Counted from the first letter of the stretch, positions 16,934-63,919 are shown. The stretch is DNA of 64,000 nt from a virus (IMGVR_UViG_3300006169_000009:1-64000), one strand, 5' to 3'. The notes: generated by a model from the letters alone, not told the origin. Numbers and translations: made by a program.

Positions 16934-18218
16934 CCGGCCCGCCCTCTTCGAGGACGTCACCGGTCTTGGGGTCCACCTTGCGCCAGATCGCTCCCTTGGG
17001 CAGACGGCCCCGGCCCTTCTTGGCCCAGTTCCCGACCTCGTCCTGGACCTCCATCACGGCCCTGTCAGCGGGCGTACGGGCCTGTGCGGGGGATCCATCC
17101 GCCCGAGGCTTCCCAGGGCTCCTGCGCCCCGTGCTGGGCTGCTCAGCAGGCTTCTCGTCGCCTACCACCTGTGTGGTGTCGGGGTTCTCCCCTCCCTCGT
17201 AGCGAGCCACACCAGCGTGGGCCCACATCATGGCGGCCTCCAACTGGGTGATCGCCAGGTGCTTCTCGTGAGCGGCCTCGGAGGGGATGATCTCCTCGTA
17301 GATCCGGGCGAGAGCGAGGGTCTCATCACGCAGGCGCTCATGCTTGGGCACGGTCACCTCGTTTGCGCGGTGGAAGTTGAACTTCCGCTCCAGCGAGCCT
17401 GCGCTAGCCTGGGCCTTATCGGCGGCCTCGTTGACCTCGCCGGTCGCCTGGGCCTCGTCAGCAGGCTCCTGAGCACGGCTACGACGAGCCTTCCGCTGAG
17501 GGGTAGGCTCGTCAGCCTTCTCGTCCTCCAGCGGCTTCTCCTCGGTCTCCAGGGAGCGCGGACGACCCCTACGGCGGCGAGGAGCAGGATCGACCTCGTC
17601 TGGATGCTGCGCCGCAGTGGTGGACTGCTCGTGCCGGTCGTCGGGGTCCGCATCGTGCCCGGACTCAGGCTCACGCCTGCGCCGACGAGAGCGGGGAGGA
17701 GCGGGCTCCGGCTCGGTATGAGCCATACCTCCTTCGTCTACTTCACCGAAGTCCAGGTCGTCCAGACCAGCGGAGAGGTCCAGGGCAGGGATACCGGCGT
17801 CCTTGGCCGCCTCCAGCAACTCCTCGGAGATGTCATCCCCGTCCTCACCCCACGAGAGGACGAGGTAGACCTCGCCTTCCTCCTTGTCGGAGGCCAACTC
17901 CTGGACGAGGCGGGCGGAGACGTCGATCGCCTCGATGGTCTCGTTGGCGTACTCCAGGACGTCACTGACGGCCCGGCTCTTGCCTTCATCGTTGACGACT
18001 ACGTCGTAGCCGACGTCGATGGCCTCGGTCCACTTCAGGACGCCTTCGAGCGTCTTGGTCAGGTGGGCCTTGGTGGCGGGGAAGATCAGCCGCAGGTCCA
18101 GACCCTCGGGGAGGCTGTCGTCCTCGACCCCCAGGAAGTCGTTGAGCAGGCTGGAGGTGTTCTGGTACGTGGAAGCACCCTCGCCAGCGAACGCAAGGGT
18201 GAGTACTCTGTCTGCCAT
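16926..18218 (-). CDS. multidomain protein: N-terminal alpha/beta domain, AT-hook-like motifs, Acb2/Tad1-like hairpin domain
   Basis: RRRRGRPRS, KKGRGRLPK; FNFH..HEKHLAITQLEAAMMWAHAGVAR. Confidence 0.65.
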   Translation of the reverse strand: MADRVLTLAFAGEGASTYQNTSSLLNDFLGVEDDSLPEGLDLRLIFPATKAHLTKTLEGVLKWTEAIDVGYDVVVNDEGKSRAVSDVLEYANETIEAIDVSARLVQELASDKEEGEVYLVLSWGEDGDDISEELLEAAKDAGIPALDLSAGLDDLDFGEVDEGGMAHTEPEPAPPRSRRRRREPESGHDADPDDRHEQSTTAAQHPDEVDPAPRRRRGRPRSLETEEKPLEDEKADEPTPQRKARRSRAQEPADEAQATGEVNEAADKAQASAGSLERKFNFHRANEVTVPKHERLRDETLALARIYEEIIPSEAAHEKHLAITQLEAAMMWAHAGVARYEGGENPDTTQVVGDEKPAEQPSTGRRSPGKPRADGSPAQARTPADRAVMEVQDEVGNWAKKGRGRLPKGAIWRKVDPKTGDVLEEGGPDE

Positions 18219-59095: not shown

Positions 59096-59340
59096 CCCTC
59101 CTGGATGTACCCGCGTGCAGCACCGTCGATACGGGCCGCCGAGAGCGCGCAGGCGGTAGGGCCAGAGCCCCAGCCACGCTCCTGGGTGGTGACCTTGGAG
59201 CCAGCGCGCATGGCGTCGGAGAGGGTGTACTTGGTCAGCACGCCCATCTCGATCTCACCCAGTTCCGCCTTCAGGGCCTGGGTCGCCTCCGGCCAGATCT
59301 CCTCCGTGGTCTTGGGAGTCTGCTTCTCCGTGGTGCTCAT
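59092..59340 (-). CDS. hypothetical protein
   Basis: ATG at 59340 with GAGGA. Confidence 0.65.
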   Translation of the reverse strand: MSTTEKQTPKTTEEIWPEATQALKAELGEIEMGVLTKYTLSDAMRAGSKVTTQERGWGSGPTACALSAARIDGAARGYIQEG

Positions 59341-60385
59341 CTGCTTCCTCACTTTCAGGGTTCTGGAACGACAGGTCACAGTCTAGCGTCTCCAGCCAGT
59401 CTGCGATAGCCTCTCGCGTCCACTTGTGGGTGTCGTTGAGATGCACGACTAGGTTGACGACGTAGTTGGTTCTGGGCATGGAACAGAACGTCTTTCCCTT
59501 GTTCTTGCGTACCGGACACTTTGCCTTGGCGGTCTTCAGCGCAGGGATGGCCTTGACCAGTGCCCCGGTCATCGGGTGGTCCTCGTCGGTGTAAGAGGCT
59601 CCGCTATTGGCGGTGTACGGCGTCAACTTCGCCTGGTCTGGCGTGATGGTCTTCTTGGGCTTGTACTCGCCCTTGTGGACCACCAGCGGGAGCGCGTGGT
59701 CGAGGTTCGGGATCTGGTTGGATACCGTGGTGGGGGTCAGCAGACCCTCGATGAGAAGGTCGACAGCGGCCTCAGCCTGATGCTGGGCCAGACCGTGCTC
59801 CATCACGAGCCAACCGATCAGTTCCTGGGGATCGGTGGTGCCTACATGGAAGTGGAACTTCTCCGGGTCCTCATCCACCGGCTCCTCCATCTCGATGTTC
59901 GGGCTGCAGTTGTCGTAGGCAGTGAACGTGCCCATCTGTCGAAGAACGTGGACCTGTTCAAGAGTGTCCTGGACAGCCTCCCAAGGCTTGCCGTCAGTCC
60001 AGTCGCACACGAATACGATCTTCGATCCTGGTCGAAGACCGCGCAGTCCTCTCGGGTGATAGACGAACTTCGCGTCCAGATTCGTGCGAAGGTTGCGAAC
60101 CTCACACCACAACTTGAAGCAGTTGTAGTTCATAGCCACGACGTAGTAAGGCTCGGGGGTGCGGAACAACTTCAGGCCCAGCAGGTTCTCCCACGTGTCG
60201 TGCTTGTGGGTGTTGGGCTTCATGTCGATGAGGACCTTCAGGCTGGCGTGCTGCGCAGGAGTCATGACGAAATCAACCGATCCACCAGTCTGGTGATTAG
60301 AGACAACCCCGCCGTACTTGTAGTCCTTGTATCCGACGGGCTTCCATGGCGAGGAGATCTGGTACAAACCATAAGACTGGGACAC
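59255..60385 (-). CDS. hypothetical protein
   Basis: GTG at 60385 with GAGAGG; C-terminal C..C..HLNDTHKWTREAIADWL. Confidence 0.65.
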   Translation of the reverse strand: MSQSYGLYQISSPWKPVGYKDYKYGGVVSNHQTGGSVDFVMTPAQHASLKVLIDMKPNTHKHDTWENLLGLKLFRTPEPYYVVAMNYNCFKLWCEVRNLRTNLDAKFVYHPRGLRGLRPGSKIVFVCDWTDGKPWEAVQDTLEQVHVLRQMGTFTAYDNCSPNIEMEEPVDEDPEKFHFHVGTTDPQELIGWLVMEHGLAQHQAEAAVDLLIEGLLTPTTVSNQIPNLDHALPLVVHKGEYKPKKTITPDQAKLTPYTANSGASYTDEDHPMTGALVKAIPALKTAKAKCPVRKNKGKTFCSMPRTNYVVNLVVHLNDTHKWTREAIADWLETLDCDLSFQNPESEEADEHHGEADSQDHGGDLAGGDPGPEGGTG

Positions 60386-60414
60386 TGCTTCCTCTCTCGT
60401 GCGCGTGGTGGGGT

Positions 60415-60431
60415 ACTCAACAGTGGAGCCA
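60415..60431 (-). repeat. 3' arm of the 17-bp inverted repeat enclosing the RNA operon
   Basis: ACTCAACAGTGGAGCCA is the reverse complement of 63947-63963. Confidence 0.85.
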
Positions 60432-60432
60432 G

Positions 60433-60510
60433 TGGAGATGGCGGGACTCGAACCCGCGTCCGCCGTCAGTCCGCATGCGGTCTTCCGACGTCGAACTACC
60501 ATGCATCCCC
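60433..60510 (-). ncRNA. mini-tmRNA consisting of the tRNA-like domain only
   Basis: GGGGAUG/CAUCUCC-A acceptor with G3.U70, UUCGAC, helix 2 capped by CAUG, GGAC-GCGGG-UUCGAGU-CCCGC. Confidence 0.8.
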
Positions 60511-61104: not shown

Positions 61105-61138
61105 TGTCCTTCTCCTCTCAGACATGGCCAGTGTAGCG

Positions 61139-61211
61139 AGCCCCTGACAGGATTCGAACCCGCATTTCGCCTGAGTCGTATTCAGGTGCCTCTCCGTTAG
61201 ACTACAGGGGC
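61139..61211 (-). tRNA. tRNA-Arg(ACG)
   Basis: cloverleaf; loop AT-ACG-AC. Confidence 0.9.
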
Positions 61212-61212
61212 G

Positions 61213-61286
61213 TGGAGATGCTTCCCGGAGTCGAACCGGGGTGAACGGGTTTGCAGCCCGCCGCCTAGCCTCTCGGCCAAAGCATC
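61213..61286 (-). tRNA. tRNA-Cys(GCA), CCA encoded
   Basis: loop CT-GCA-AA. Confidence 0.93.
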
Positions 61287-61290
61287 TCGG

Positions 61291-61374
61291 TGCAGGGTGA
61301 AGGACTCGAACCTCCAAGGTCAGATGACACCTGGTTTACAGCCAGGGACGCTACCAGTTACGCTCTAACCCTGC
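61291..61374 (-). tRNA. tRNA-Tyr(GTA)
   Basis: loop CT-GTA-AA; long variable arm. Confidence 0.92.
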
Positions 61375-61376
61375 GG

Positions 61377-61451
61377 GGTGGCGGACGGCCCTCGAAGCCG
61401 CTAATCGACAGATTCACAGTCTGCCCGCTCGTCCACTTCGCGTTCCGCCAC
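61377..61451 (-). tRNA. tRNA-His(GTG)
   Basis: loop CT-GTG-AA; C73. Confidence 0.88.
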
Positions 61452-61453
61452 AG

Positions 61454-61524
61454 TGCTCCCAGAGGGATTCGAACCCCCAGTCACGGTGTGTAAGACCGAT
61501 GGTTTGCCGTTAACCGACAGGAGC
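61454..61524 (-). tRNA. tRNA-Val(TAC)
   Basis: loop CT-TAC-AC. Confidence 0.9.
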
Positions 61525-61595
61525 AAACGGGCTTGGGGTGTCGACTGGTCCCCGCTTCACGGATTCAAACCGATGGACGAGCCCCGCGCCCAACG

Positions 61596-61667
61596 CGGTG
61601 AGTACGGGGATCGAACCCGTGGCCTTCCGGCTGACAACCGGCTGCGCTGCCTCTGCGCCAACCCACC
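61596..61667 (-). tRNA. tRNA-Asp(GTC)
   Basis: loop TT-GTC-AG; G73. Confidence 0.9.
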
Positions 61668-61672
61668 TAGCG

Positions 61673-61746
61673 TGGAGAATGAGGGACTCGAACCCTCCAG
61701 GCCGCGATCTTGCAAGGATCGCCCGGGTAACCCGTGCCCATTCCCC
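61673..61746 (-). tRNA. tRNA-Ala(TGC), atypical D arm
   Basis: G3.U70; loop CT-TGC-AA. Confidence 0.8.
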
Positions 61747-61747
61747 T

Positions 61748-61823
61748 TGGCTGATCTGGTAGGACTCGAACCTACAACCCCCTGATTAACAGTCAGGTGC
61801 GCTGCCAATTGCGCCACAGACCA
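61748..61823 (-). tRNA. tRNA-Asn(GTT), CCA encoded
   Basis: loop CT-GTT-AA. Confidence 0.93.
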
Positions 61824-61828
61824 ATGAG

Positions 61829-61901
61829 TAGCGGTGACGGGATTCGAACCCGTAGTACCCAGATTATGAGTCTGGCGTGTTGCCGATTACACCACACCGC
61901 G
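61829..61901 (-). tRNA. tRNA-Met(CAT)
   Basis: loop CT-CAT-AA; C1:U72 mismatch. Confidence 0.9.
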
Positions 61902-61906
61902 ATGCG

Positions 61907-61979
61907 TACGCCCAGTAGGACTCGAACCTACAACCCTCTGATTAAGAGTCAGATGCTCTACCAATTGAGCCATAGGCGC
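61907..61979 (-). tRNA. tRNA-Lys(CTT)
   Basis: loop CT-CTT-AA. Confidence 0.93.
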
Positions 61980-62077
61980 ATGTTGCTGACTTGCCCAACA
62001 AGGTTGTGCCACGTTGTTGGCGCTTCCGCAGGGCTAGGCACGTTAGAGCCCCCGCACCGACTGTCAGCGAGCCGTCG

Positions 62078-62151
62078 TGTCCTCGGAGGGACTTGAACCC
62101 CCAACCTGCAGGCTCTCGACCTGCCGCCTCTGCCGATTGGGCTACGAGGAC
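62078..62151 (-). tRNA. tRNA-Leu(GAG), short variable arm
   Basis: loop TC-GAG-AG. Confidence 0.85.
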
Positions 62152-62228
62152 AAGCCCGGACGTCTCCGGGTCGTTCTCATTACGTCGGGTGGCTCCACAC
62201 CGGCTCGTCAGCCGGGATCACCCGAGGG

Positions 62229-62302
62229 TATCCGTGGAGGGACTCGAACCCCCAACATCTTGATCCTGAATCAAGCGCCTCTGCCAGTTGGACTACACGG
62301 AC
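62229..62302 (-). tRNA. tRNA-Leu(CAG), short variable arm
   Basis: loop TT-CAG-GA. Confidence 0.88.
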
Positions 62303-62389
62303 ATGCGTGGGGATACCATTCGCCCCACCACCAGGCTCTACAATCCCATTCCACCTCGGCTCCCGTAGGCTTCGGCCCTGGCCCTTACG

Positions 62390-62473
62390 CGGAGAGAGCA
62401 GGATTCGAACCTGCGGGACGCGAGGCCCACTGAGTTAGCAACTCAGCGCAATAAACCGCTCTGCCACCTCTCC
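62390..62473 (-). tRNA. tRNA-Ser(GCT)
   Basis: loop TT-GCT-AA; long variable arm. Confidence 0.92.
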
Positions 62474-62549
62474 TGGACCCCCCAGCAGGATTCGAACCCG
62501 CAACGCCCGGCTTAGAACACCGTCAGTCTATCCGTTGACCTATAGGGGG
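62474..62549 (-). tRNA. tRNA-Arg(TCT), CCA encoded
   Basis: loop GT-TCT-AA. Confidence 0.88.
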
Positions 62550-62553
62550 ATAG

Positions 62554-62628
62554 TGCGCTGCTCAGGGCTCGAACCTGAAACATCCGGGGTTTGAATCCGG
62601 CACCTCTGCCAAATTGGGTCAGCAGCGC
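62554..62628 (-). tRNA. tRNA-Leu(CAA), short variable arm
   Basis: loop TT-CAA-AC. Confidence 0.87.
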
Positions 62629-62636
62629 GTGTGCGA

Positions 62637-62743
62637 GTCTGCAAGCGCACTCGGCGCGTTATCGGTGCTTCACGTACCGTCGTCAGGCCAAAGGCTTCTT
62701 TCCCTCTTCCGTCGAAGAGGATCGAGAACGGTAACTTGCAGAC
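62637..62743 (-). ncRNA. putative structured spacer RNA (multibranch)
   Basis: 9-bp perfect closing helix GTCTGCAAG/CTTGCAGAC; internal CCTCTTC-GACG-GAAGAGG. Confidence 0.5.
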
Positions 62744-62747
62744 CCAG

Positions 62748-62831
62748 AGGAGGGTAGAGGGTTCGAACCCCTGCCCCGAAGGACACTCCAGTTTTCTAGA
62801 CTGGTCGCCAGCCACTCCAGCAGTACCCTCC
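62748..62831 (-). tRNA. tRNA-Ser(AGA)
   Basis: stem CCAGT/ACTGG; loop CT-AGA-AA; long variable arm with UUCG. Confidence 0.85.
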
Positions 62832-62835
62832 GAAG

Positions 62836-62908
62836 TACCCCCAACGGGATTCGAACCCGTGTTAGCGGCTTGAAAGGCCGCCGTCCTAGTCCACTAGACG
62901 ATAAGGGT
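62836..62908 (-). tRNA. tRNA-Glu(TTC)
   Basis: loop CT-TTC-AA. Confidence 0.92.
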
Positions 62909-62909
62909 A

Positions 62910-62985
62910 TGGCAGTCCGTGCGGGAGTCGAACCCGCGTCACCTGGCTGAGAACCAGACATCCTGGGCCACTAGACGAACGGACC
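62910..62985 (-). tRNA. tRNA-Glu(CTC), CCA encoded
   Basis: loop TT-CTC-AG. Confidence 0.92.
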
Positions 62986-63050
62986 AAGTGCTGTGGCTTG
63001 TCGGACCAGAGCATGAGTCAGCAGGCCCGAGTGGACCTCCAACACCGGAG

Positions 63051-63124
63051 TTGGGGTGGCAGGGCTTGAACCTGCGCATCCGTGCTTATCAGGCACGAGC
63101 CTTGACCGACTTGGCTACACCCCA
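63051..63124 (-). tRNA. tRNA-Ile(GAT)
   Basis: loop CT-GAT-AA. Confidence 0.92.
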
Positions 63125-63129
63125 TCGCG

Positions 63130-63201
63130 CTCCTCCCCAAGGACTCGAACCTCGACCGGATGAATCAGAGTCACCCGTGCTGCCAATTACACCAAGGAGG
63201 A
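63130..63201 (-). tRNA. tRNA-Gln(CTG)
   Basis: loop CT-CTG-AT; U1-A72, G73. Confidence 0.92.
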
Positions 63202-63307
63202 AAGACGCGGACCCATGGCACTACATGGGCTACCCGCTCTGACCACCCCAGGTCTGCACCGTCCTCTGTGCAGTGTTCAGGCGAGGACACCTTGGGGGAG
63301 TGCGCAG

Positions 63308-63381
63308 AGCCTCGTGGAGGATTCGAACCCCCAGCGCGCTGATTACTAAACAGCCGTTCTGCCAGTTGGAACTAACGAGGC
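63308..63381 (-). tRNA. tRNA-Thr(AGT)
   Basis: loop TT-AGT-AA; C2-G71. Confidence 0.87.
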
Positions 63382-63455
63382 ATGCGTACCGTGTTCGCGA
63401 AGGGCGGTACAACCCCTCCTCTAGAACGCCGCTTGTGCGACGGTGCGATCATACG

Positions 63456-63527
63456 AGCGCCGCAGGGGACTCGAACCCCCACCCTATGCTTGGAAGGCAT
63501 CGATGCTGCCATTAACACCAACGGCGC
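63456..63527 (-). tRNA. tRNA-Gly(TCC)
   Basis: loop CT-TCC-AA; U73. Confidence 0.92.
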
Positions 63528-63713
63528 GTGTGTCGGGGACGCAGCGCGGAAACGAGGGGCGTGATCAGTCTCTCGCATGGACCTTGCTTCGCCAGGAGGC
63601 AGCGTTGACGCCCCCGACTTTTATCACCATGACCCAACCCTTCGGTTGAGTAGTTGAAGCGCGGAGTGGAAGACATCCGCCGTGGGGGCGTAGTTTGTGG
63701 CCCCGCGCTTCTG

Positions 63714-63786
63714 TGCCGCCCCGAGGACTCGAACCTCGGCCTCCCGGTTTTCAGCCGGGCGCTCTACCTGTTGTCGCTAGAGCGGC
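63714..63786 (-). tRNA. tRNA-Phe(GAA)
   Basis: loop CT-GAA-AA. Confidence 0.9.
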
Positions 63787-63845
63787 ATGAGCGGGTCTAG
63801 GGTTGTCGACACTTAGCCCCATCGAGGGGGACTCTAGGCCCGCAG

Positions 63846-63919
63846 TCTGAGTGGGAGGATTTGAACCCCCGACCTCCTGAACCCAAATCAGGCGGCATAC
63901 CTGGCTTGCCTACACTCAG
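63846..63919 (-). tRNA. tRNA-Pro(TGG)
   Basis: loop TT-TGG-GT. Confidence 0.92.

Follow-up and report, generated by a model that had tools for sequence, protein, structure and literature searches.

A tag-less mini-tmRNA gene at the end of a phage tRNA block belongs to a widespread family of short phage RNAs

A virus record of 106,055 bp (63% G+C) carries, in the first 64 kb that make up the window analyzed here, a 78-nt minus-strand gene (60433..60510) that consists of the tRNA-like domain (TLD) of tmRNA only, and our analysis confirms it as a genuine tag-less RNA gene, far beyond chance. Bacteria rescue stalled ribosomes and control the quality of translation mainly through trans-translation, and, to our knowledge, little has been learned of how phages handle this pathway. 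The sequence-only reading that first drew attention to this mini-tmRNA implied that it was unprecedented, which was overstated, as a TLD-only phage tmRNA was on record in 2009/2014 and again in 2025 (PMC11915505). Publications cover a single such phage molecule, that of DS6A, and a single experiment on inhibition. The family's breadth, its conserved cap module, and its fixed, unannotated presence in BRock-like phages were not found in the literature searched, and a search under the name "mini-tmRNA" returned no paper. Papers on AcrIIIA1 and on methylophages were set aside as precedents, as they concern full-length or fragmented host tmRNA, another type of RNA.

The minus-strand sequence written out in the sequence-only reading matches the window exactly at 60510..60433, from G1 to the discriminator A73. 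The acceptor stem of 7 bp pairs GGGGAUG (60504..60510, minus strand, with G3 at 60508) with CAUCUCC (60434-60440, with U70 at 60438), which together with A73 (60433) forms the minus-strand segment 60433..60440 as read from the sequence. CUG comes after A73, so CCA is not encoded and only C74 is templated. The acceptor stem is followed by a 13-nt D-loop analogue, CAUGGUAGUUCGA (60491..60503, minus strand), which has the tmRNA-type GG and UUCGA(C) and no D stem; it aligns to "GAucuGGaUUCGAC" of the tmRNA model and has two extra nucleotides (AG) relative to the family consensus, GGUUUCGAC. Helix 2a, 5 bp long in the window, pairs CGUCG (60486..60490, minus strand) with CGGCG (60461..60465, minus strand), the second strand being placed by the tmRNA model alignment and by covariation. 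It opens into an internal loop, in which an A-rich 5' bulge, GAAGA (60481..60485, minus strand; family consensus RAAAR), faces a 3' bulge read from the sequence as ACUGA (60466..60470, minus strand), and is closed by the cap hairpin CCG-CAUG-CGG (60471..60480, minus strand), which occupies the site of the pseudoknots and tag frame of a full-length tmRNA. A GAC linker and the T arm GCGGG-UUCGAGU-CCCGC (60441..60460, minus strand) complete the molecule, the first G of G-GAC being shared with helix 2a. The G3:U70 pair, A73, the missing D stem, the UUCGAC and GGAC elbow, and a helix 2 held in tmRNA register and closed by a tetraloop hairpin, all of which the sequence-only reading had described, can be read directly and recur in the model alignment.

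Reading of the sequence shows neither a D stem nor an anticodon arm in the window RNA. Pseudoknots PK1-PK4 are absent, with no sequence present to form them, and there is no mRNA-like domain (resume codon, tag frame, or stop), as at most 25 nt, 10 of them in the hairpin, separate the strands of helix 2a. A two-codon tag (GCG GAC UGA), which would end at the sole in-frame stop nearby, was considered and rejected, because these nucleotides are base-paired and are not conserved in BRock, GiJojo, and pSt2308. We also considered whether the bulge might be a kink-turn and whether AAAGCCGCA might be linked to PK1 of Escherichia coli, and dropped both ideas as unsupported.

Run on the 64-kb window, the Rfam tmRNA model (RF00023) matches 60430-60510 with 54.5 bits (E 1.2e-18), above its gathering score of 47 bits. 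Aligned from position 1 to position 374 of the model, the gene has 14 nt in place of 308 internal positions, and this bears out the proposal of a tmRNA-type TLD without the mRNA-like domain. The gene does not score as an ordinary tRNA, as the Rfam tRNA model (RF00005) falls below the tmRNA model and was removed by clan competition. ARAGORN, with -m included, called neither a tRNA nor a tmRNA at 60433-60510; the program made no call of either kind in any of 100 members of the family described below. Identity as a tRNA-Ala was rejected, given the lack of a D stem and anticodon arm, the missing ARAGORN call, and the outscored tRNA model. The normal tRNA-Ala(UGC) of the phage lies at 61672-61746. 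Fragments of ssrA that serve as attP consist of its 3' part only, and derivation from such a fragment was also rejected, as the 5' and 3' halves are both present and paired and no integrase lies nearby.

Nucleotide searches found little of the gene elsewhere. The 1.7-kb surroundings gave no match to GenBank phages by megablast, and in blastn searches against phages full-length tmRNAs were matched by the 3' 30 nt of the gene only. The best blastn match covering most of the gene, in Streptomyces phage Xkcd426, proved not to be a mini-tmRNA: it looks like an ordinary tRNA into which 37 nt are inserted. This Xkcd426 locus (KU530220, fetched locus 1456-1559) is a 104-nt match to the tRNA model (48 bits) in an unannotated gap; its insert falls in the anticodon-loop region, and the tRNA may be interrupted by an intron or in some other way.

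Genes for a large terminase, portal, tail sheath, tape measure, helicase, and exonuclease mark the record as that of a myovirus. The terminase is ~60% identical to those of BRock, Alone3, LuckySocke, pSt2308, and GiJojo. Twenty-five tRNA genes, every one on the minus strand, form a block that ends with the mini-tmRNA as its last RNA gene: an array of 24 lies upstream of the mini-tmRNA in the window (61138..63919; ARAGORN and Rfam tRNA matches), and the 25th, a tRNA-Trp, lies just outside at genome positions 64064-64139. Downstream, the gene is bounded by a minus-strand open reading frame (ORF) of 377 codons (59255..60385), which has a GTG start after GAGGAAG and no PHROG or Pfam match. The longest ORF call (59255-60502, minus strand, 415 amino acids, ATG at 60502) overruns the RNA gene, and GTG 60385 is the likely true start. 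Consensus scans for promoters and terminators gave sites no more frequent than in shuffles. Searches of the phage genome did not find SmpB, Pth, an RF-1/ArfB-domain protein, a CCA-adding enzyme, an RNA ligase, or RtcB, so any activity of the RNA would depend on host factors.

Comparison with chromosomal ssrA bears on the host. Three Streptomyces chromosomal tmRNAs start GGGGAUG...GGUUUCGAC and end GGACGCGGGUUCGAUUCCCGCCAUCUCCA, and both the acceptor stem (GGGGAUG/CAUCUCC) and the T stem (GCGGG/CCCGC) of the window RNA are identical to theirs. In contrast, the acceptor stem of Micromonosporaceae tmRNAs is GGGGGUG/CACCUCC, and their T stems differ as well. The pattern is in keeping with a Streptomyces-type host for the window phage, and the identity of the stems suggests exchange with, or selection towards, host-type ssrA. 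Exact mimicry of the host is not required, as the stems of BRock, GiJojo, and pSt2308 are unlike those of the host.

The cultured relatives place the gene in a phylogenetic setting. All five cultured BRock-like myophages (BRock, pSt2308, GiJojo, LuckySocke, and Alone3) have a tmRNA-model match of 80 to 81 nt each, with RF00023 scores of 64.5, 61, 57.4, 57.1, and 36.8 bits, the last being that of Alone3. The mini-tmRNA is a fixed feature of this cultured, genetically tractable clade of Streptomyces phages. Annotation was checked in three GenBank records. The copies of BRock and LuckySocke carry no feature, the interval from tRNA-Val to the following tRNA, where they sit, being an unannotated gap, and that of GiJojo (PP725410, 17025-17105) lies under a "hypothetical protein" coding sequence, gp44 (17023-17265), which starts right on the RNA gene and is probably a false protein call. 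The BRock genome paper gives only 29 tRNAs, found with ARAGORN, and describes the phage as virulent and without lysogeny genes (PMC7453282). No conserved neighboring protein gene was found, as the neighbors differ among BRock-like phages and the ORF downstream of the window gene belongs to no family. Genes for thioredoxin and RNA ligase are interleaved with the tRNA block in BRock-like phages (BRock, KX925554, 95500-98600, and LuckySocke).

For covariation, seven sequences were aligned (the window gene and those of the five BRock-like phages and DS6A; alignment A2), with flanks kept because trimming to the gene ends led MAFFT to misalign the 5' ends. All seven have G3:U70 and the cap hairpin CCGCAYGCGG is invariant, with 10 of the 21 pairs changed on both sides and 95.9% of cells paired, versus 84% in shuffles. 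Differences among the seven in the acceptor stem, helix 2a, and the T stem are compensatory. One copy departs from this pattern, that of Alone3 (OR725492, 18155-18234), which is weakened compared to its close relative LuckySocke: its T stem is GCGGG/CCCAG, with two mismatches, helix 2a has two U-U mismatches, and CACGAC stands instead of UUCGAC. It may be a decaying copy or a recombinant, and it indicates that the gene can weaken in a viable phage.

The family extends well beyond this clade. A pattern scan of IMG/VR with the cap and T loop gave at least 120 matches, and 79 of 80 fetched loci are complete mini-tmRNAs of the same plan. A second pattern, without the cap, also gave at least 120 matches, from which 73 unique sequences were taken; every one of them has a helix 2a of 6 to 7 bp, the RAAAR 5' bulge, and a short capped hairpin. 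Of these 73, 22 have the CCGCAYGCGG motif exactly, and the rest have covarying caps such as CCACAAGUGG, CCGCUUGCGG, and CCUGUAAGGG. A covariance model built from A2 (R1) and run on 100 chosen sources gave exactly one match in each, with scores of 49 to 105 bits and 84 bits for the window. The mini-tmRNA family exceeds by at least a hundredfold the size that one would take from the literature, and it is little studied and widespread.

Covariation in the 100 members is extensive. The alignment was fitted to R1, and the search patterns constrain GGAC, parts of the T arm, and, for one of the two sets, the cap; on this basis, paired cells make up 98.3% versus 72.7% in shuffles, and 518 cells are changed on both sides versus 137. 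The covariation score is 0.62 versus 0.12 in shuffles, a value reached by 0 of 500 shuffles, and partners slid out of register give at most 0.09. All six pairs of helix 2a show changes on both sides, and the T stem also covaries. Neither search pattern includes the acceptor stem or the discriminator, and here pairs 4-6 show four to five pair types each, G1-C72 and G2-C71 are invariant, G3:U70 is present in 97 of 98 members, and A73 is present in 97 of 97. The alanine identity elements are under selection. Gene length ranges from 72 to 86 nt, with a mode of 78-79 nt, and just 14 of 97 members have a templated CCA. A tRNA gene lies within 500 nt in 25 of the 100, and 67 have none in the fetched locus; as most members lack tRNA neighbors, the RNA is not just a passenger of tRNA arrays. 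The sequence-only reading had favored a maintained gene over decay and had proposed that related phages be searched for the same capped TLD; such relatives exist and covary strongly, the gene is present in six of six BRock-clade phages and in DS6A, and conservation, not random decay, is the rule among homologs, with the exception of the weakened Alone3 copy.

Members also occur in bacterial assemblies. With the same pattern, 15 of 80 fetched loci among the matches listed are true members, and the other 65 are chance matches in GC-rich DNA. The true members come from Hamadaea, Micromonospora okii, Streptomyces lycii, Pseudonocardia, Microlunatus, and Acidimicrobiales, as well as two Patescibacteria, Sideroxyarcus, Poriferisphaera, Phycisphaerales, Synechococcaceae, and Actinomycetota metagenome-assembled genomes. 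In S. lycii, which is cultured, a full-length tmRNA (contig 49, 1548-1926) coexists with a 78-nt mini copy with the CCGCACGCGG cap (contig 32, 60821-60901), the latter presumably on a prophage or phage-derived contig. A strict first pattern found two contigs only, IMGVR_UViG_3300034656_000011 (fetched locus 1712-1788) and IMGVR_UViG_3300006310_000244 (372-448), and both carry a different, AT-richer mini-tmRNA of 77 nt (RF00023, 78 bits) with an encoded CCA. A loop region of 15 nt closes its helix 2 where the CCGCAYGCGG cap is lacking, and it lies directly between two protein genes, with no tRNA in either contig. Full-length tmRNAs of ~400 nt are found within the tRNA block of ~83-kb mycobacteriophages (Rey, Aziz, and TyDawg; in Aziz, MT658802, fetched locus 1130-1529), and in Rey and TyDawg this stretch is annotated "null" or not at all.

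What such an RNA may do can be considered from the parts it has retained. In tmRNA, G3:U70 and A73 serve alanyl-tRNA synthetase (AlaRS), and the UUCGAC/GGAC elbow serves SmpB binding. Our leading proposal, for and against which we see about equal weight, is that the window gene is a functional tag-less mini-tmRNA of the DS6A type that would act as a charged competitor and counter tagging. It would be transcribed with, or just after, the 25-tRNA block, excised by host RNase P and 3' trimming enzymes, completed at its 3' end by the host CCA-adding enzyme, and charged with alanine by host AlaRS via G3:U70 and A73. Binding of host SmpB and EF-Tu via the UUCGAC/GGAC elbow would follow, and the resulting Ala-TLD-SmpB-EF-Tu complex would compete with the full-length tmRNA of the host, both for SmpB and for ribosomes that have stalled (non-stop). 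With no resume codon or tag frame, nascent chains would remain without an ssrA degradation tag and gain at most one alanine, with release by host factors, and the net effect would be host trans-translation tagging that is suppressed or diverted in infection.

The argument for this proposal runs from conservation to charging. A near-invariant G3:U70 beside freely covarying pairs suggests that charging is selected, and selection for charging would favor engagement of stalled ribosomes over passive titration of SmpB; the inferred ribosome entry draws solely on this conservation of identity elements. Against it, a ribosome left with its peptide on the template-less TLD would still need to be released by some route, and the phage encodes none.

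The same conservation is what makes a pure SmpB sponge doubtful to us. Here the RNA would titrate host SmpB, and perhaps EF-Tu or AlaRS, with no productive ribosome entry, and trans-translation would be shut down. If SmpB binding were all that mattered, G3:U70 and A73 should drift like pairs 4-6, and total loss of ribosome rescue would cost the phage ribosomes. The SmpB-contacting UUCGAC and GGAC are present, however, the phage lacks its own release factor or Pth, and the sole experimental precedent lies on this side: according to the account of Mao et al. [quoted passage not shown] By that account charging was not needed for inhibition in that setup, and it is because inhibition was seen without charging that we rate the charged-competitor proposal no higher than we do. 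The idea of inhibition is restated for DS6A in PMC11915505, and both functions suggested by the sequence-only reading, an SmpB/trans-translation decoy and tag-free rescue, are already in print for DS6A (PMC4131195, citing Mao et al. 2009).

Tag-free rescue on behalf of the phage we regard as unlikely. The RNA would free ribosomes stalled on truncated mRNAs, which are numerous in an infected cell, without marking the products for proteolysis, as has been proposed for organellar tmRNAs that lack a coding sequence (CDS). The conserved alanine identity set and the heavy investment of the phage in translation (25 tRNAs) are consistent with this role, and mitochondrial CDS-less tmRNAs, which co-occur with SmpB, have been argued still to help with incomplete mRNAs (PMC11915505). 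No phage-encoded hydrolase was found in the genome, however, we know of no mechanism for release of peptidyl-TLD without a stop codon, and the explanation largely overlaps the charged-competitor proposal, differing from it in the selected effect, rescue rather than anti-tagging.

A further explanation is that the RNA has another target, as a decoy or ligand for a host tRNA- or tmRNA-directed nuclease, for RNase R, or for a phage protein that recognizes the cap. We know of no TLD role that explains the conservation of the cap module, whose shape (A-rich bulge, stem of 3 to 4 bp, and tetraloop) is kept and whose exact CCGCAYGCGG recurs in unrelated phages. Loose context comes from the AcrIIIA1 system, in which RNase R is bound by tmRNA fragments of ~90 nt (PMC11662646). 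This explanation is nevertheless quite improbable, as there is no conserved neighboring protein gene, contexts are varied, with those 67 of 100 members without tRNAs, and all AlaRS and SmpB elements of tmRNA are kept, which would be superfluous for a generic decoy.

Finally, although the full-length, tag-encoding tmRNAs of ~130-kb Streptomyces phages (e.g., Mildred21) have 3' ends 97% identical to the window gene and the Alone3 copy is weakened, a nonfunctional remnant of full-length phage or host ssrA, or an attP-type fragment, is scarcely credible, being contradicted by the covariation, with its abundant compensatory change and 98% of cells paired, by the perfect pairing of both TLD halves, by deletion endpoints that are the same in ~100 diverse members, by the restriction of attP to the 3' part of ssrA, and by the virulence of BRock (PMC7453282).

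On a broader scale, one can envisage that the charged-competitor proposal applies to a large phage family, numbering hundreds and spanning phages of Actinomycetota, Planctomycetota, Patescibacteria, Proteobacteria, and Cyanobacteria, where an alanine-charged RNA, rather than being a passive SmpB sponge, would work on stalled ribosomes as a general anti-tagging countermeasure and the cap would be a specific functional module in place of the mRNA-like domain. We put this forward tentatively; if true, the cap could dock on SmpB, the ribosome, or a release factor. The family opens a question that can be addressed in the laboratory, of whether phages switch off or reroute ssrA tagging and whether charging is needed. 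The mini-tmRNA may also offer structural work a natural minimal ligand of SmpB, AlaRS, and EF-Tu.

Set against known systems, the window RNA combines features of several. With tRNA-Ala it has G3:U70, A73, a 7-bp acceptor stem, and a T arm in common, whereas the D stem and the anticodon arm with its anticodon are missing. With standard tmRNA (SsrA) it has in common the tRNA-like domain, the UUCGAC/GGAC elbow, and the register of helix 2a, whereas PK1, the resume codon, the tag frame and stop, and PK2-PK4 (308 model positions) are gone; having no mRNA-like domain, it cannot add a tag. The CDS-less tmRNAs of organelles (jakobid mitochondria and plastids), compared by description, are likewise little more than an alanine-accepting TLD and are presumed partners of SmpB, and plastid examples of ~65 bp are known in Mallomonadaceae (PMC11915505). 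Those are organelle genes that have coevolved with a dedicated imported SmpB, whereas the window RNA is a phage gene and the host has a full tmRNA.

The closest counterpart is in DS6A. An entry "Mycobacterium phage DS6A (TLD only)" appears in Hudson, Lau and Williams 2014 (PMC4131195; tmRNA Website tmID 11587), and the 2025 tmRNA database paper repeats the TLD-only entry as "Phage__Mycobacterium.9" (PMC11915505). We located the gene at JN698994 28478-28560, where RF00023 gives 43.2 bits, below the cutoff; model R1 gives 76.6 bits for DS6A and 84 bits for the window, the alignment behind R1 having included both. DS6A also encodes an RtcB-like ligase (gp76), and by Pfam search the window phage has neither an RNA ligase nor RtcB. 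The two phages differ, DS6A being a 60-kb temperate siphovirus of Mycobacterium tuberculosis and the window phage a 106-kb BRock-like myovirus, and so do the settings of the genes, that of DS6A standing alone between protein genes and that of the window ending a 25-tRNA block. Compensatory changes distinguish every stem, and the canonical UUCGAC and GGAC of the window gene are GGUCGAC and GGCAC in DS6A. Yet both RNAs are phage-borne, ~80 nt long, and without a D stem or an encoded CCA, and both have G3:U70, A73, the helix 2a register, the A-rich bulge, the CCGCAYGCGG tetraloop hairpin, and the T arm. Encoded by a phage, within the TLD-only length (about 75-85 nt), and with the features of the cap module, the window RNA has the same plan as that of DS6A and is therefore of a kind already known.
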